IMG/VR virus record: IMGVR_UViG_3300047509_000177
Coordinates: 27,382 to 91,381 of that record
DNA length: 64,000 nt
Reading direction: 5' to 3' (one strand)
Origin: a virus
Numbering within the stretch: position 1 is the first letter of the stretch; the number at the start of each line of letters is the position of its first letter. The position numbers were made by a program, and so were the translations under genes. The notes beneath the pieces are model-generated. The model saw only the letters and a program-made list of their open reading frames with translations. It searched no databases and was not told the DNA's origin. Shown here piece by piece: positions 16,478 through 60,419 of this stretch.

Positions 16478-16739
16478 AAAGGGAAAGCATTCAGGATATA
16501 CAGAGCTAGGAGCAATCCAATTTAGAAGACTTAGGAAAGGAGATATTGAGTGGTGTTCTAACGAACATTATATTCCTAAGCATAAAGATAAGAGAAGTCC
16601 TAATGCAGGATCAGGATCAAGAAAAAATGCTACTCATACAGTATTTATATTAGGACTACATTCTGCTTATGTATGCGCTAAGTGTAGAAAAGAATGGATA
16701 GATACTTGGAAAAAATATTCACCAATAGAGTATGCATAG
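16470..16739 (+). CDS. Hypothetical protein, possibly Zn-binding
   Basis: CxxxH and CxxC; overlaps the helicase stop. Confidence 0.5.
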   Translation: MAKKGKHSGYTELGAIQFRRLRKGDIEWCSNEHYIPKHKDKRSPNAGSGSRKNATHTVFILGLHSAYVCAKCRKEWIDTWKKYSPIEYA

Positions 16740-16835
16740 TGCGCCTGGGGAGAATTGAACTCCCGACCTCCTGTTTGAAAGACAGGCGCTCTTTGAGACC
16801 CCGAAGGTTCTCGTTTACCACTGAGCTACAGGCGC
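16740..16835 (-). tRNA. Atypical tRNA: anticodon UUC, Val/Lys-like body, extra hairpin in the D-loop
   Basis: GCGCCTG/CAGGCGC acceptor, A73, GCTC/GAGC D-stem, CCTGT-CTTTCAA-ACAGG anticodon arm, GGGAG-TTCAATT-CTCCC T-arm. Confidence 0.8.
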
Positions 16836-27287: not shown

Positions 27288-28373
27288 ATGTCTCCAGTTA
27301 TGACCGAGAATCTTGAGCGCGACATTGAGATAATAAGGAAAAAGCGTGGTCCAAAGGCTATATACACAACGTATGAAGAACCTCCTATATATCGTATCCC
27401 ATTTGATTCTCCTGGACTAAATAGAATTACTTCGGGAGGGATACCCTTGGGTCGGATTACTCGTTTTTGGGGAGGTCCGATGAGTTCCAAGAGTCTTTTG
27501 GCATGGCAAATTGTTCGTAAAGCTAGAGAGATGGACCTTGCTGCTACTTGGTGGGATATTGAGCGGCAAGTATCAAAAGAATTTGCGGAGAAAATGGGAT
27601 GTAAAGGAATTCATATAGAGACAGCTAGGATTATTGAGGATATAACTAGAGAGTTACAGCTGTTACTAGGATCGGTGCATCTCCATGTTCTGGACTCATG
27701 CTCGGAGGCTATACCCCAGGATAGATGCAATAAGGACCCTGCTGATTGGCATATAGGGTTAGACATTCGTGTATGGAATAAGTGTTGGGAATATATAATG
27801 AGTGCTATGGATAAGAATGAAAATTCTATTATTGCGATAGACCACGCAAAGAGTACTTTTTCTCCAAGCTCGCCAGGCGGGCGTATATCAGAAAAACCCT
27901 TGGGAGGGAAGGAGATTGAGCATCATTCATCGCTTTCCCTACATATGAAAAATACTAAGTGGTTATATTATGATGAAGAAGGGATGCTTCAGACTGAGGA
28001 TAAGTTAAAAGATAAAGGAATAATTGGTTTTGCTGGGAAGCCTGAGCCTGATGGAATGGAAGTAGTAGTTAGAACTTCTAAGAGTAGGGTTTGCACACCT
28101 TTTAAAATTGCTAATCTTAGGCTTGATTTTAAAGATCTAGAATTCGATCATACTTTTGAGCTTATGCAAGGTGCAGAATATTTTGATAAAATGGGTGGAT
28201 TAGCACATAGGTCTGGGCAACCTGCAATTGCTCATCGGGCAGCAAAGCAGGGCGGATGGGTTTCCCTTCCATCCGGCGAGAAAATTCAGGGAGAAAGAGC
28301 ATTAAGACAGAGAATAGAGCAGGATATAGACCTTCAGCGCCTTATCCGCCGTGCAATGCTTCAAGGTAATTAA
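27288..28373 (+). CDS. recA: RecA/UvsX-like recombinase
   Basis: GGIPLGRIT, Walker A-like GGPMSSKS, DIE, VLDS, GG...H.SS, KSRV..PFK. Confidence 0.85.
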   Translation: MSPVMTENLERDIEIIRKKRGPKAIYTTYEEPPIYRIPFDSPGLNRITSGGIPLGRITRFWGGPMSSKSLLAWQIVRKAREMDLAATWWDIERQVSKEFAEKMGCKGIHIETARIIEDITRELQLLLGSVHLHVLDSCSEAIPQDRCNKDPADWHIGLDIRVWNKCWEYIMSAMDKNENSIIAIDHAKSTFSPSSPGGRISEKPLGGKEIEHHSSLSLHMKNTKWLYYDEEGMLQTEDKLKDKGIIGFAGKPEPDGMEVVVRTSKSRVCTPFKIANLRLDFKDLEFDHTFELMQGAEYFDKMGGLAHRSGQPAIAHRAAKQGGWVSLPSGEKIQGERALRQRIEQDIDLQRLIRRAMLQGN

Positions 28374-43964: not shown

Positions 43965-44038
43965 GGTGGCGGTAGTTCAATTGGAAGAACTCCCGACTTA
44001 AAATCGGGATCGTGCGGGTTCGAGGCCCGTCCGCCACC
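43965..44038 (+). tRNA. Atypical tRNA: anticodon UAA, short variable loop, His-like G-1:C73 acceptor
   Basis: G-GTGGCGG/CCGCCAC-C, GTTC/GAAC D-stem, CCCGA-CTTAAAA-TCGGG, GCGGG-TTCGAGG-CCCGT. Confidence 0.85.
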
Positions 44039-44200
44039 TTTCTTTCAATCAAGAGGTTATCGAAAGAAAGAATTTTTTGGGAAAGTATCAATGATTTTCT
44101 TTGCTTCGCTGTTGCGGATGCTTTGGGTGAGTCATGTATGTTTGTGCCAAAGGATTTGCAGTCCTTTCCCTATCAATCTCGGGCATCGCCATACGCAGCT

Positions 44201-46051: not shown

Positions 46052-46338
46052 AATGAGGACTTAATGACGACAGAGCAAAACAAATATTCGTACACCGGTG
46101 TCAACCTAACCCCTACTTCGTCTGAGCATGATCAACGTCGTGCAAAGCTTCTGGAGCAGGCCCGCAGAGAAGTTCCAGCACTACGTGAACAGGTGGCAGC
46201 AGATCGAGCCGCTCTGCGTCGTATCGCTAAATCGTAAGAACGCAGCTAGGAGGGAAAGACGAAACTAACTACGAAACGCCGGGCAAACATTGTGACGTAT
46301 AGCACAAAGACACCCTTGTGCTACAACTTCGCTAGATG

Positions 46339-46422
46339 TGCGGCAGACGGGACTCGAACCCGTAATCCGTGGTGGGAACCCGGGCTCTAGCCGGGCGCGT
46401 TTGCCAGTTTCGCCACTGCCGC
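46339..46422 (-). tRNA. Leu-type tRNA body with anticodon AGA (Ser)
   Basis: GCGGCAG/CTGCCGC, A73, D-arm GCGAAACTGGCAAACGC, CCCGG-CTAGAGC-CCGGG, long variable arm. Confidence 0.8.
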
Positions 46423-46520
46423 ATGTAGTGCTCTACCCCCTCCAGAGCAGTCGAGAAATACCCCAACCACCAAGTAACGATTGATACTAGAAATCTAATG
46501 ATGCTTGTGCTACAAATATG

Positions 46521-46605
46521 TGCGGCGGACAGGATTCGAACCTGCACGGTGCGATGCACCCCGACTTGATGAGGGCCGGTGCGTCTACCATTCCGCCACC
46601 GCCGC
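46521..46605 (-). tRNA. Leu-type tRNA body with a 9-nt anticodon loop centred on CAU
   Basis: GCGGCGG/CCGCCGC, A73, GCGGAATGGTAGACGC, CCGGC-CCTCATCAA-GTCGG, V-arm GGTGC-ATC-GCACC. Confidence 0.8.
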
Positions 46606-46761: not shown

Positions 46762-46855
46762 GGAGGGCGCTCCTAAGTGGTGTGTGGGGCCGGGCCTTCA
46801 TCCCGGTGACCCGTCTGAGACACGGCGGCGATTGGTTCGATTCCAACGCCCTCCG
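46762..46855 (+). tRNA. Allo-tRNA-like gene (8/4 fold, selC-like appearance), loop CCUUCAU
   Basis: 8-bp acceptor GGAGGGCG/CGCCCTCC, G73, 4-bp T-stem TTGG-TTCGATT-CCAA, long variable arm. Confidence 0.7.
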
Positions 46856-47001
46856 CAAGCTTCAGCCGAGCTTGTAGAACAACAGCCTATCATTAGATTA
46901 TTTGTGCGGTACGTTACAAACTATCTTTGTGCTCTATGCCACTATCTAGTTTCGTCGTTAGTTTCGTAGATGCTGATTCTGTTGATTGATATTGTCTGGT
47001 C

Positions 47002-49295: not shown

Positions 49296-50603
49296 TTATA
49301 CCTTAGTTTTCAATAAAGGAAACATTATAACATCTCTAATATTCTTCTTTCCCAAGAGTAGCATACAAAGACGATCTATTCCAATACCAACTCCGGCCCA
49401 AGGCAGTGCTCCCATTTCTAGAGCTTCGATGTAGTTTTGATCGTATGGGTCATATTCTCGTATATTTTCTCCAAATTCATTTGTGAAAAACTTTTTGCTT
49501 TCTGGTTCCTTTAGGCGCGTTTCCTGCTCATGTGGGTCATTCAAGTCTGATGCTCCAGAAGCAATCTCCATATCATCTATATATAGCTCCCATGCCTCTG
49601 CTCTGTTTCTATGTCTACCTTTTCCAATTGATTTTCTACTCAAGGGCCAATCAGACGATGGTAAGTCTGCATCGAAAATCATAGGATACTCATGAGGGCA
49701 TTTTATTGAACATGACACATTTCTAATTAAATCTTCAGTAAAACAAATCATATCTAGGTCAGTCTTACAACTCTCAAATATCTCTAGATTAGTGAACTCT
49801 GGGTTGTGTTCGGGACTAATTCCCTCATTTCTAAAGCACCTTGAGAAAGCATATACTCTATCGAACCCGCCAACGAGTGCGCGCTTAAGGTATAGCTCTG
49901 AGGAAATAGATAGGAAAAATTGTTGTCCAAGAGTATTGTGTTGTGTTGTAAATGGCTTCGCAGTTGCTCCACCATAGATGGGTTGGAGTATGGGAGTTTC
50001 AATCTCAACGAAGTCTCTTTCATTCAGATACTTCCTTATCTCAAATACTATTTCTGCTCTCTTCTTAAATACCTCGCGCGAATCCGCGCTGGACATCAGA
50101 TCCTGCTCGCGGTGCCTGTACTTATGCTCAGGGCTTTTCAGGCCATTTCGCTTATCGGGAGGCTCTCGTAGTGCCTTGGCTAAAAGCGTGAAATTAGAAA
50201 TTAAAAGAAGGGGCTTCCCACGCGGATTCTGGCCTAGTGCCCCTTCTACTCCGACCATATCTCCAAGATCGCATTTTATAACGCTATCAAGGACTATTTG
50301 AGATTTTGCGAAATCTAGTTTTCCTGACTCTATGGGGCCATAAATTAGTTGGATTGATCCCGTCTGGTCAAATAAGTCAAAGAATATAGTCTCTCCGTGA
50401 TGCCTTCGAGCAGATATTCTTCCTGCTATCTTACAAAAATTATCTGAAGGAACATCAACTTTTTCTCTAGTAAGGATTTCATGGAGAGTTACGGTTGATG
50501 GTCGATTTAAAACATATTGAATTGTTTCTCGGCCAGGAAAATCGCGCGGGTAGGGGTTAGAATTATTCTGTATCTTCTTTAGTCTCTCTATAGAATTACT
50601 CAC
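49296..50603 (-). CDS. lysS: Divergent class II lysyl-tRNA synthetase paralog
   Basis: OB-fold anticodon domain, EIETP..Q..GGA, ELYLKR, FRNEG..HNPEFT, GIGIDR; pocket residues altered. Confidence 0.85.
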   Translation of the reverse strand: MSNSIERLKKIQNNSNPYPRDFPGRETIQYVLNRPSTVTLHEILTREKVDVPSDNFCKIAGRISARRHHGETIFFDLFDQTGSIQLIYGPIESGKLDFAKSQIVLDSVIKCDLGDMVGVEGALGQNPRGKPLLLISNFTLLAKALREPPDKRNGLKSPEHKYRHREQDLMSSADSREVFKKRAEIVFEIRKYLNERDFVEIETPILQPIYGGATAKPFTTQHNTLGQQFFLSISSELYLKRALVGGFDRVYAFSRCFRNEGISPEHNPEFTNLEIFESCKTDLDMICFTEDLIRNVSCSIKCPHEYPMIFDADLPSSDWPLSRKSIGKGRHRNRAEAWELYIDDMEIASGASDLNDPHEQETRLKEPESKKFFTNEFGENIREYDPYDQNYIEALEMGALPWAGVGIGIDRLCMLLLGKKNIRDVIMFPLLKTKV

Positions 50604-51342
50604 TACTTACCTCGGCGTTTTTAGCCTGGCAAATATCTGGTATTACTTTGTCATGCATTGCTGTAAAAATATTTGGTTGCTCGTCGTAATAATGGCACCA
50701 AAATCTTTTACAGTCTTTGCATTCATAAAAAGTTCTCTTTGAATTATCTTGAGGAGTTTCTCCTACCCAATTATGGCTGCTTCCCCATCCGTTACCAATT
50801 ATTTGGCTCATTAATTGTCACCATAATTTTGGATGGCAGCTAGAAACTCATCGTCAGTAATGTATGTGAGATAAACTGGCTTGTATTCCCTCTCTAAAAT
50901 TGCTGCAATAATTTCACCTAGAGTTCTTTCTGGATTTTTATTCCATACTTTTCTTAGTTCCTCCAAAATACAAGTGATACGGTAAGGGTCAGTAGGTTTA
51001 TCTACAATTTCTATAGGTGTAATTAGATTATTCATTTATATTCCTTTTTTATAGTTAGGGTCGCAATGTCCGCAACAGCCGTGAATTCTGGCCGAGGTAT
51101 CCTCTTCATATTCAACTTCATGTTTCAGTGCATCTGGATCTGGATGGCCTACGCCACAGGGGCAAATTCGCTCGAAAATTCCTCTATCTTCGCGCCAAAT
51201 TAGTGGCCAATCTTTCATATGATGGTTAGAAGGATTATGGATCACACAATATTTTCCTGTGCATTCTTTCGCAGAATGTATGTTATAAAGTATTTGTCCG
51301 TTAGGAAGAGTGAATATATTTTTTAGATTATTCATGATATCA

Positions 51343-59441: not shown

Positions 59442-60419
59442 TCACAAGAGTTTGATCTGCGGCGTGAGCAGATTCCGGTAGGGATGAGGTTCGGTCACGA
59501 CTCCCTGCTCGATCAGCCGGTAGAACAGCAGGCCGCGAGAGCGGCTTGCGCGGCGGTTGAAGCGGAACACGTACTCGTCGCAGTAATAGTCCAACTGCTC
59601 GCGCGACATGCCGCCCTGATGCGTGCCGAGCAACCACCGCTTGAGCAGACTGGCGACGCGGTGAGCGTGCGGCATCGTGACGTGCGCGTCCGCTGCCTCG
59701 GGGTCGCTCATGTTCGTAACTTCATGCTGGTAGCCGTAGCGGCTGATCGAGCTGTAGCTCCCGAAGGCGTCCGTGTGGATGATCGAGCCACGCGCCACGT
59801 TGTCGAGGATGAACTCGATGAGCGTCTCGGCCTTAGTGTCCGGCACGCGAGCAAGTCGAAGGCGTCCAGCCTTGAGACGTTCGCCAGTGCGGCCGTGAGC
59901 CTCGACCGCGATCACAACGATCGCCTTCCCGTGTGGCGAGCGACCACCCGCCTTCTTGGTCTTGATCCCGCCGATAAACGTCTCATCCACCTCGACCACA
60001 ACACCGGGACCACCGATCATGTCCCGGCCAGGGCGCACCATCGCACGGCGCAGCTTGTGCATCCACGCCCACGCCGTCTGGTAGGAGCCGAAGCCAAGCT
60101 CACGCTTCAACCCGAGCGCGCTCACACCGTTCTTCTGACTAACGACGTGCCACATGACGTGGAACCACACACGCAGCGGATAGCGTGTCTTGTCGAAGAT
60201 CGTGCCAGCCGTCACGCTCGTGCGCTTGCGACACGCCGTGCAGCGCATAAGGCCGCTGCCCATGCGCCAATAGTCGCCTATGACACCGCAATGCGGGCAC
60301 ACAAAGCCGTTGGGCCATCTGATCTTCTCGACGTACGCGAGACACGCCTCCTCGCTATCGAACCGCTCGATGAACTCGCTGAAGGTGCGGGGGTAATCCG
60401 CGCTCGCAGCGGGGGTCAT
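59442..60419 (-). CDS. IS1595-family transposase, apparently intact
   Basis: RWPNGFVCPHC Zn ribbon, SVTAGTIF, EVDET, HTD, SLLKRWLLGTHQG, EYVFRFNRR. Confidence 0.95.
   Translation of the reverse strand: MTPAASADYPRTFSEFIERFDSEEACLAYVEKIRWPNGFVCPHCGVIGDYWRMGSGLMRCTACRKRTSVTAGTIFDKTRYPLRVWFHVMWHVVSQKNGVSALGLKRELGFGSYQTAWAWMHKLRRAMVRPGRDMIGGPGVVVEVDETFIGGIKTKKAGGRSPHGKAIVVIAVEAHGRTGERLKAGRLRLARVPDTKAETLIEFILDNVARGSIIHTDAFGSYSSISRYGYQHEVTNMSDPEAADAHVTMPHAHRVASLLKRWLLGTHQGGMSREQLDYYCDEYVFRFNRRASRSRGLLFYRLIEQGVVTEPHPYRNLLTPQIKLL

Follow-up and report, generated by a model that had tools for sequence, protein, structure and literature searches.

What does a phage gain from a lysyl-tRNA synthetase (LysRS) gene whose lysine pocket has been rebuilt? 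The question arises from a 64,000-nucleotide window, the whole stretch of DNA analysed here (positions 27,382 to 91,381 of IMG/VR virus record IMGVR_UViG_3300047509_000177), which belongs to a soil phage genome of 91,381 bp (G000, the contig holding the window). On its minus strand, an open reading frame (ORF) at 49296..50603 encodes a LysRS-like protein of 435 amino acids (P0001) from a GTG start, with an 8-nt overlap with the stop of a small upstream ORF at 50596-50811. The frame is intact, and the N-terminus aligns with the Met starts of homologs. The original prediction, made from the letters of the window, saw a remodelled paralog that could charge a different or bulkier amino acid. What is new here, judged from alignments, is that the pocket signature of the phage clade recurs in a full-length bacterial paralog that sits beside canonical LysRS. 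Our tentative answer, to which we give a little less than an even chance, is that the phage enzyme would be a copy of its host lineage's second LysRS, keeping host tRNA-Lys charged for an AT-rich, Lys- and AAA-rich phage in a host of about 70% GC.

The domains and fold of P0001 are those of LysRS. Pfam finds the OB anticodon domain (PF01336, 2e-8; aa 55-142, 50178..50441, minus strand) and tRNA-synt_2, the class II D/K/N core (1.1e-65), with the class II catalytic domain spanning aa 159-432 (49308..50129, minus strand). The closest solved structures are bacterial LysRS (e.g. 6wbd, 1.9e-75), matched in two stretches between which P0001 residues 300-312 replace about 85 LysRS residues. An AlphaFold model built from the clade alignment (pLDDT 73.5) gave LysRS structures only as its top Foldseek matches. 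Alignment with the LysRS and EpmA families and structure modelling, both proposed in the original prediction, place the protein with LysRS and not with EpmA.

The catalytic core is also conserved. Residue numbering here is that of E. coli LysU from NC_000913.3 (the published number is the gene number minus 1). Class II motifs 1-3 and the ATP/Mg ligands R262, E264, H270, F274, E414, E421 and R480 are invariant across the phage clade; P0001 retains G216, E240, N271 and E278 besides, and its alpha-amino ligands are intact alongside those for ATP and Mg. Motif 2 and the next strand (FRNEG..HNPEFT..EIFESC, aa 257-279, 49767..49835, minus strand) keep R262, E264, H270, F274 and E278 and carry the replacements Y280F and Y283C. 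That the ATP-binding motifs and the residues reading U35 had been kept, as originally proposed, agrees with the alignment to LysU. The proposed deletion of the helical insertion domain is likewise confirmed: between motifs 2 and 3, P0001 has 18 residues and the phage clade 16-44, vs 84-91 in full-length LysRS (insertion junction aa 298-316, 49656..49712, minus strand). Given the role assigned to this insertion in PMC11878792, its loss should open the active-site entrance of the phage enzyme. P0001 is predicted to be a working tRNA-charging enzyme, a minimised class IIb aminoacyl-tRNA synthetase.

The changes appear where lysine is held. Compared with E. coli, RIAPE becomes SISSE (E240 retained), ELYMAY becomes EIFESC (Y280F, Y283C), DRFEF becomes EAWEL (R412A, F413W; E414 retained) and EIGNGFSELND becomes EIASGASDLND (N424S, F426A, E428D). 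The last two of these altered segments lie on the strands with EAWELY and MEIASGASDLNDP (aa 331-357, 49533..49613, minus strand), where the Mg ligands E414 and E421 are kept. Further new Trp and Leu features are an S-to-W change in the WPLSR loop, PWAG and P469L. Every substitution listed in the original prediction is found on alignment to LysU, and the same set gains Y283C, R412A and P469L. Although 36 full-length clade members share only 44-68% identity, none deviates from the six pocket states or from P469L: Y280, N424, F426, E428, Y283 and R412 are replaced by F, S, A, D, C and A, respectively, a pocket unlike that of canonical LysRS, where Y280, N424, F/Y426 and E428 surround the lysine side chain and Y283 and R412 belong to the second shell. 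Among 133 canonical LysRS, Y280, N424 and E428 are 100% conserved. These 133 have 108 positions conserved in at least 85% of sequences, 86 of which are kept in the phage clade and 13 replaced throughout (T130N, V205I, R236S, E256S, Y280F, A282T, Y283C, R412A, F413W, N424S, E428D, Q442S and P469L). The replaced positions are thus few, and they cluster at the distal pocket and its second shell.

How these changes bear on the substrate is less direct. The acidic residues E240 and D428, suited to a cationic side chain, persist. An estimate from residue volumes suggests that the new Trp and Leu residues may refill the pocket space, which weakens the earlier argument for a bulkier amino acid. E. coli LysRS still works with Y280F as its only change (Ataide 2007, cited by PMC12546413), so this change alone is compatible with lysine activation; the literature searched held no characterised precedent for the full six-change set. 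The phage enzyme may load lysine or another amino acid.

The anticodon side is more conservative. With residue roles taken from the human LysRS-tRNA structure paper (PMC11878792), the U35 readers are R62 (100% of the phage clade), F74 (100%) and Q85 (86%), all present in P0001. The Glu that reads U36 occurs in 97% of canonical enzymes and 83% of the phage clade; the position is Gln in 94% of the bacterial paralogs and Lys (K130) in P0001. Contacts to U33 and 2-thio-U34 are altered in the phage clade, K81 being variable and T130 replaced by N. In P0001, T130N and K130 fall in the OB-fold loop that joins strands 4 and 5 (GQNPRGKPL, aa 124-132, 50208..50234, minus strand). The original prediction gave this change as TKTGELS to NPRGKPL; the change itself is borne out, with the E. 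coli wording corrected to KTQTGELS and its P0001 counterpart to QNPRGKPL.

A word-indexed search returned about 35 homologs of 403-477 aa, 44-68% identical and all metagenomic, several of them on contigs of 87-106 kb. A metagenome scan added one clade locus only, no close relative was found in the GenBank phage collection, and the papers searched held no description of a pocket-remodelled LysRS family. Three relatives came from IMG/VR: the complete G002 (93.6 kb, with terminal repeats), the 98% complete G003 and a 60-kb fragment, G001. Pairwise ratios of non-synonymous to synonymous substitution rates (dN/dS) are 0.13-0.15, with dS saturated at >2. The comparison of dN/dS among homologs, also proposed originally, thus indicates purifying selection, and relaxed selection was not seen. 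Decay to a pseudogene is ruled out by the intact frame, the invariant catalytic residues and a dN/dS of about 0.14. Purifying selection, together with the clustering of changes at the distal pocket and anticodon loop, agrees with the earlier claim that changes are concentrated at specificity positions rather than spread by decay. In four phages the synthetase gene lies in a conserved early/replication arm beside tRNA-Arg(UCU), an arm that also holds an FtsK-like ATPase, an HNH endonuclease and small Cys-rich ORFs. Across these four phages, no conserved partner or biosynthetic neighbour gene was found beside it.

After the phage clade, the closest proteins are full-length (about 500 aa) 'LysRS' of Solirubrobacterales metagenome-assembled genomes (P0043 type), which are annotated as lysine--tRNA ligase; PGAP-type models would give the paralog the same label. 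The paralogs share with the phage clade Y280F, Y283C, R412A, N424G/S, F426G/A, E428D, P469L and the S-to-W change in the WP loop, and P0001 itself carries F280, C283, A412, small residues at 424 and 426, D428 and L469. At E240/E278/Y280/E414/E421/N424/F426/E428 the bacterial signature is EEFDEGGD, with intermediates in P0122 (EEFEESCD) and P0038 (EEFDESSD); P0122 is absent from IMG/VR. Each of five complete Solirubrobacterales chromosomes (G004-G008) encodes one canonical LysRS, scoring about 640-650 bits against NF001756 and having the Y/N/F/E pocket, and one paralog scoring about 520-540 bits; class I LysRS was not found in them. The same pocket in a paralog beside canonical LysRS is a pattern of functional divergence. 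The review PMC9437257 names only LysU, PoxA and LysX for LysRS duplications.

The genomic setting of the paralog is a housekeeping one, as the last gene of a string with an OTCase-family gene, lgt and prmC (L023:160-2965, plus strand; loci L021-L100). A tRNA-Val(UAC) lies 1-3 kb downstream in 49 of 80 loci. Phylogenetically, the phage clade is monophyletic (support 100), as are the bacterial paralogs (99), which adjoin actinobacterial canonical LysRS. With all columns included, a tree joining phage enzymes and paralogs is 34.5 log-likelihood units (lnL) better than a quick free search (approximately unbiased test, p-AU 0.95). A common origin of the two would be the economical reading of these alignments, and convergence is possible.

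The likely host comes from the same lineage. Inside the 40% GC phage, an IS1595-family transposase (59442-60419, minus strand) has a GC content of about 63%. Its relatives are a 98% identical copy on another metagenomic contig and named proteins, 57-58% identical, from Solirubrobacteraceae. These relatives and a hairpin-bearing tRNA common to the phage and G004-G008 support Solirubrobacterales as the host lineage. Upstream of the window, a 150-codon ORF (G000:C1:8404-8856, minus strand) resembles Rpf-type transglycosylases weakly (PF06737, 24.6 bits, under the cut-off of 27), which is weakly consistent with an actinobacterial host.

The hairpin tRNA deserves a closer look because the original prediction proposed it as the partner of the synthetase. 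It is 97 nt long, has the anticodon UUC and carries a 25-nt hairpin inserted in its D-loop (16739..16835, minus strand). The whole contig gives seven tRNA calls, none of them tRNA-Lys, of which Rfam confirms six; at its gathering score it does not confirm a 95-nt 'UUC' call of 8/4 type (46762-46856, plus strand). Other tRNAs of the window include a 75-nt one with a His-like G-1:C73 end and the anticodon UAA (43965-44039, plus strand) and long-arm, Leu-like A73 tRNAs with anticodons AGA and CAU (46338-46422 and 46520-46605, both minus strand). Members of the hairpin tRNA family have a 17-25-nt D-loop hairpin, a conserved body, a GCGCCYG acceptor stem and A73 (window 16739-16835; L010:1501-1595; L216:9-104; L257-L260). 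All five chromosomes with the paralog also encode a UUC tRNA of the same 96-nt hairpin architecture, whose hairpin stem shows a compensatory change. It follows that the phage copied a trait of the host lineage. In G004 the hairpin tRNA is the only UUC tRNA detected and its body is unlike that of tRNA-Glu(CUC); the other tRNAs form an ordinary set that includes one each for Lys(UUU) and Lys(CUU). About 8 kb downstream of the G004 hairpin tRNA, its final 42 nt recur exactly (C1:2163323-2163418 and 2171465-2171506), as usually happens where an element has integrated into a tRNA gene.

Among 120 other genomes of the class that were sampled, neither the hairpin tRNA pattern nor a paralog-level match was found (0/120 each; best protein matches 39-53% identical), the pattern search being exact, so that variants can escape it, and the BLAST search of DNA too insensitive. 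The co-occurrence of paralog and hairpin tRNA in the hosts is real and may be a single ancestry event. The phages do not follow it. The complete G002 keeps the synthetase with only tRNA-Arg(UCU) and tRNA-Leu(UAA), G003 has Gln(UUG), Thr, Met, Arg and Leu tRNAs, and G001 carries the same hairpin-tRNA body with the anticodon UGC, i.e. with G35. No tRNA-Lys was found in G000, in the complete G002 or in the 98% complete G003. The idea that the enzyme and the UUC tRNA travel together, which the original prediction wanted followed through related phages, thus agrees with the host genomes sampled and fails for the phages, which lack the obligate, dedicated partner that a ProRSx-type system would have. 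As the partner of the phage enzyme, the UUC tRNA is not supported, in view of its absence from G002, the UGC of G001, the U36-reading Glu kept in 83% of the clade and the meaning of GAA.

That meaning can be read from the genomes. Phage codons have a GC content of 0.32 at third positions; Lys makes up 6.5% of codons, 60% of it as AAA, and GAA about 4.9%. AAA occurs 0-3 times per gene in the ten host LysRS genes. In the phage enzyme, GAA columns align with Glu in canonical LysRS (E202 89%, E290 88%, E396 80%, E383 77%), and the rare host GAA codons likewise fall on Glu-rich columns. Over 30 ortholog groups from the four phage genomes (G000, G001, G002 and G003), Asp is a far more frequent exchange partner of GAA columns than Arg (13% vs 4%). 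GAA is Glu-like. A full reassignment of GAA is ruled out by this alignment with Glu and exchange mainly with Asp, and the non-standard codon reading of a ProRSx-type system was not found for it. The pocket itself, with D428, without R412 and with no basic residue gained, is a poor fit for glutamate.

The same ortholog groups hold a second signal. At conserved amino-acid columns, synonymous codons are randomised for all C/T pairs, TTA/TTG, AGA/AGG and GGA/GGG. For GAA/GAG, AAA/AAG and CAA/CAG, same-codon columns number 248 vs 72 expected, 151 vs 53 and 46 vs 24, respectively. A mixture fit gives a G-fixed class of 0.34 for Glu, 0.24 for Lys and 0.12 for Gln and of zero elsewhere, so this class is specific to the three amino acids. 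The GAA-fixed class was dropped as proof of two meanings, since a similar A/T-fixed fraction (0.24-0.5) occurs in other codon pairs. Within the phage synthetase, nine clade-invariant Glu (six also invariant in canonical LysRS) are GAG, eight of the nine in all four phages, and the invariant Lys K10, K143 and K240 are AAG. Codon context (Shine-Dalgarno-like GAGG, A-runs) shows small differences only, and AAA columns show no significant difference from AAG columns in what they exchange with (chi2 16.4, about 11 degrees of freedom). The Glu codon of the motif-1 ETP (E202, window 49998-50000) is GAA in five of five bacterial paralog genes (L106-L110) and four of four phage genes (the others L003, L004 and L005); GAA makes up only about 7-16% of Glu codons in the paralog genes, and canonical LysRS of the same genomes lack the ETP GAA. 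One reading of the codon signal is a shortage of the host U34 tRNAs that decode these three split boxes, for which some of the phages have no tRNA of their own; every phage has its own tRNA for TTA and AGA, where the effect is gone. The signal also fits U35 tRNAs that are ambiguously charged by the LysRS-like enzyme.

The fold, the catalytic residues, their conservation, the kinship with the bacterial paralog and the link to the host are established by these results; which tRNA is charged, with what amino acid and to what gain for the phage is inferred from them. The gene was probably derived from the second, pocket-remodelled 'LysRS' of Solirubrobacterales, a step that the phylogeny does not settle. 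The enzyme would bind host tRNA-Lys by reading U35 and U36 of its NUU anticodon, and would activate a cationic amino acid held by E240, E278 and D428, the simplest being L-lysine. Loss of the motif 2-3 insertion would open the active-site entrance, as in AspRS. More charged tRNA-Lys would then be available to a 40% GC phage in a host of about 70% GC.

Several observations weigh against a second lysine enzyme of this kind. All six pocket positions, 87-100% conserved in the 133 canonical LysRS, are replaced, including E428, the counterpart of the AspRS specificity Arg, and none of 268 sequences compared is a D428 LysRS that looks like a sole housekeeping enzyme. The NCBIfam LysRS models rank first for P0001 yet remain under their curated cut-offs (NF001756 376.7 vs 468; TIGR00499 333.5 vs 427.6). 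Across the whole bacterial lineage the paralog coexists with canonical LysRS, which argues for a non-redundant role. Without the seven shared pocket columns, the tree joining phage enzymes and paralogs becomes 20 lnL worse, although it is not rejected (p-AU 0.25). On the side of translation, the phages carry tRNAs for other rare A-ending codons and never tRNA-Lys(UUU), and AAA is avoided at critical Lys sites though every phage has the enzyme.

The enzyme may instead have a new amino-acid specificity, placing another cationic amino acid (arginine, homoarginine, a shorter diamino acid or a modified lysine) on tRNA-Lys, mainly UUU, so that AAA would be ambiguous in infected cells. We regard this as rather unlikely, though a non-lysine cationic substrate is a real possibility. 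The joint and invariant replacement of Y280, Y283, R412, N424, F426 and E428 with the negative charge kept, the recurrence of this signature in a bacterial paralog that never stands in for canonical LysRS, and T130N at the 2-thio-U34 contact all point that way, as do the AAG codons of universally invariant Lys in four phages and the G-fixed class at 24% of conserved Lys columns. However, AAA and AAG have similar exchange partners, scarce host U34 tRNAs explain the codon signal as well, and the pocket may have been refilled by the new bulky residues. Neither the phages nor the host genomes examined revealed a way to supply an unusual amino acid, the paralog's neighbours being the housekeeping genes for OTCase, Lgt and PrmC. 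Lysine 2,3-aminomutase (TIGR00238; KamA/EpmB family) is absent from the four phages and five hosts, and a search for lysine 5,6-aminomutase (PF09043), run without a positive control, found none in the same genomes. A lysine-isomer substrate route was set aside on these grounds.

In a related and unlikely proposal, the paralog and its phage mini-version might form a non-lysine charging system for U34-U35 tRNAs (the hairpin tRNA(UUC) and/or tRNA-Lys(UUU)), loading an amino acid other than that of the canonical enzymes. If true, phage and host would not treat GAA/AAA and GAG/AAG as equivalent, and the fixation of GAG and AAG at critical Glu and Lys sites in four diverged phages would be explained. 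In a quite improbable rival, which carries the originally proposed pairing over to the hosts, the paralog would be the dedicated synthetase of the hairpin tRNA(UUC) in the host lineage, and the phage copy would boost GAA decoding in a host that hardly uses GAA. Paralog and tRNA do occur together in G004-G008 and neither in the 120 others, the tRNA is the only UUC tRNA of G004 with a body unlike tRNA-Glu(CUC), and the U36-reading position is Gln in the bacterial paralog and Lys in P0001. It would also explain a paralog type without tRNA-Lys in the phages, and it accords with Glu having the strongest G-fixed class (34%) and with the ETP GAA codon of five paralog and four phage genes. Yet GAA columns are acidic (canonical Glu 77-89%) in an enzyme whose pocket is chemically unlikely for glutamate; 83% of the phage enzymes keep the U36-reading Glu; the tRNA copy has G35 in G001 and is missing from G002; and the host co-occurrence may be one shared ancestry event, seen through an exact pattern search that can overlook variants. 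Very improbable, in our view, is a role outside translation or in counter-defence, with the enzyme making an adenylate or Ap4A-type signal, serving a non-ribosomal acceptor or standing in for a host LysRS inactivated by defence. Such roles are known for LysU (Ap4A), LysX (lipid lysinylation) and EpmA (EF-P), according to the review PMC9437257; an opened active site could favour side reactions, and a divergent enzyme could evade an inhibitor or modifying toxin. Still, tRNA charging is suggested by the complete anticodon domain, with its conserved U35 readers, of every member, no conserved partner gene stands beside the synthetase in four phages, and P0001 has no MprF-type fusion, a feature searched for in this protein and not in longer forms.

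Copying the host's second LysRS for the sake of tRNA-Lys remains the reading we prefer. A bacterial lineage conserves the family alongside its normal enzyme, and the likely phages of that lineage have captured and minimised it. The locus is relevant to the question why AT-rich phages with GC-rich hosts should bring a synthetase for lysine instead of a tRNA. At 435 aa and without the insertion, P0001 should be easy to express, and would prove to be either an unusually small LysRS scaffold or a natural specificity that is new. The behaviour of GAR, AAR and CAR codons at critical sites, where these pairs alone resemble non-synonymous codons, offers an independent readout within the genome. Pocket-changed synthetases are raw material for natural and engineered change of the genetic code. 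To our knowledge, apart from PylRS and SepRS, natural synthetases with a changed amino-acid pocket and kept tRNA binding are rare.

Among known systems, the best sequence and fold matches are to class II LysRS (LysS/LysU; TIGR00499, NF001756; PDB 1e1t, 6wbd, 9slz), with which P0001 shares the N-terminal helix, the OB domain, the class II core, the ATP/Mg ligands, G216, E240, E278 and the U35 readers. It differs from them in its rebuilt pocket, the loss of the insertion of about 85 aa, the changed U33/U34 contacts and its scores below cut-off. The Solirubrobacterales paralog is the closest full-length relative and comes from the likely host lineage. It has F280, C283, A412, D428, L469, small residues at 424 and 426 and W in the WP loop; unlike the phage enzyme, it is full length with the insertion and has E414D, G424/G426, canonical T130/K81 and Gln at the U36-reading position. 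EpmA (PoxA/GenX), the EF-P beta-lysine ligase, is likewise a LysRS-derived core with altered amino-acid preference, but it has no anticodon domain and acts on a protein, whereas P0001 keeps the OB domain. An EpmA-like EF-P ligase is ruled out by that domain, by a TIGR00462 score of 143.3 bits against a cut-off of 286.9 and by the absence of EpmB from G000-G003. The original prediction named Streptomyces ProRSx/tRNA-ProA as the closest precedent, and the likeness stands for a paralog kept beside the housekeeping enzyme and, in the host lineage, for a co-occurring tRNA whose anticodon and body do not match. It does not extend to the phages, which have no obligate tRNA partner, or to codon reassignment, the codon of the odd tRNA keeping its standard amino acid. 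In ProRSx it was anticodon recognition that changed; in the LysRS-like enzyme of the phages it was the amino-acid pocket.

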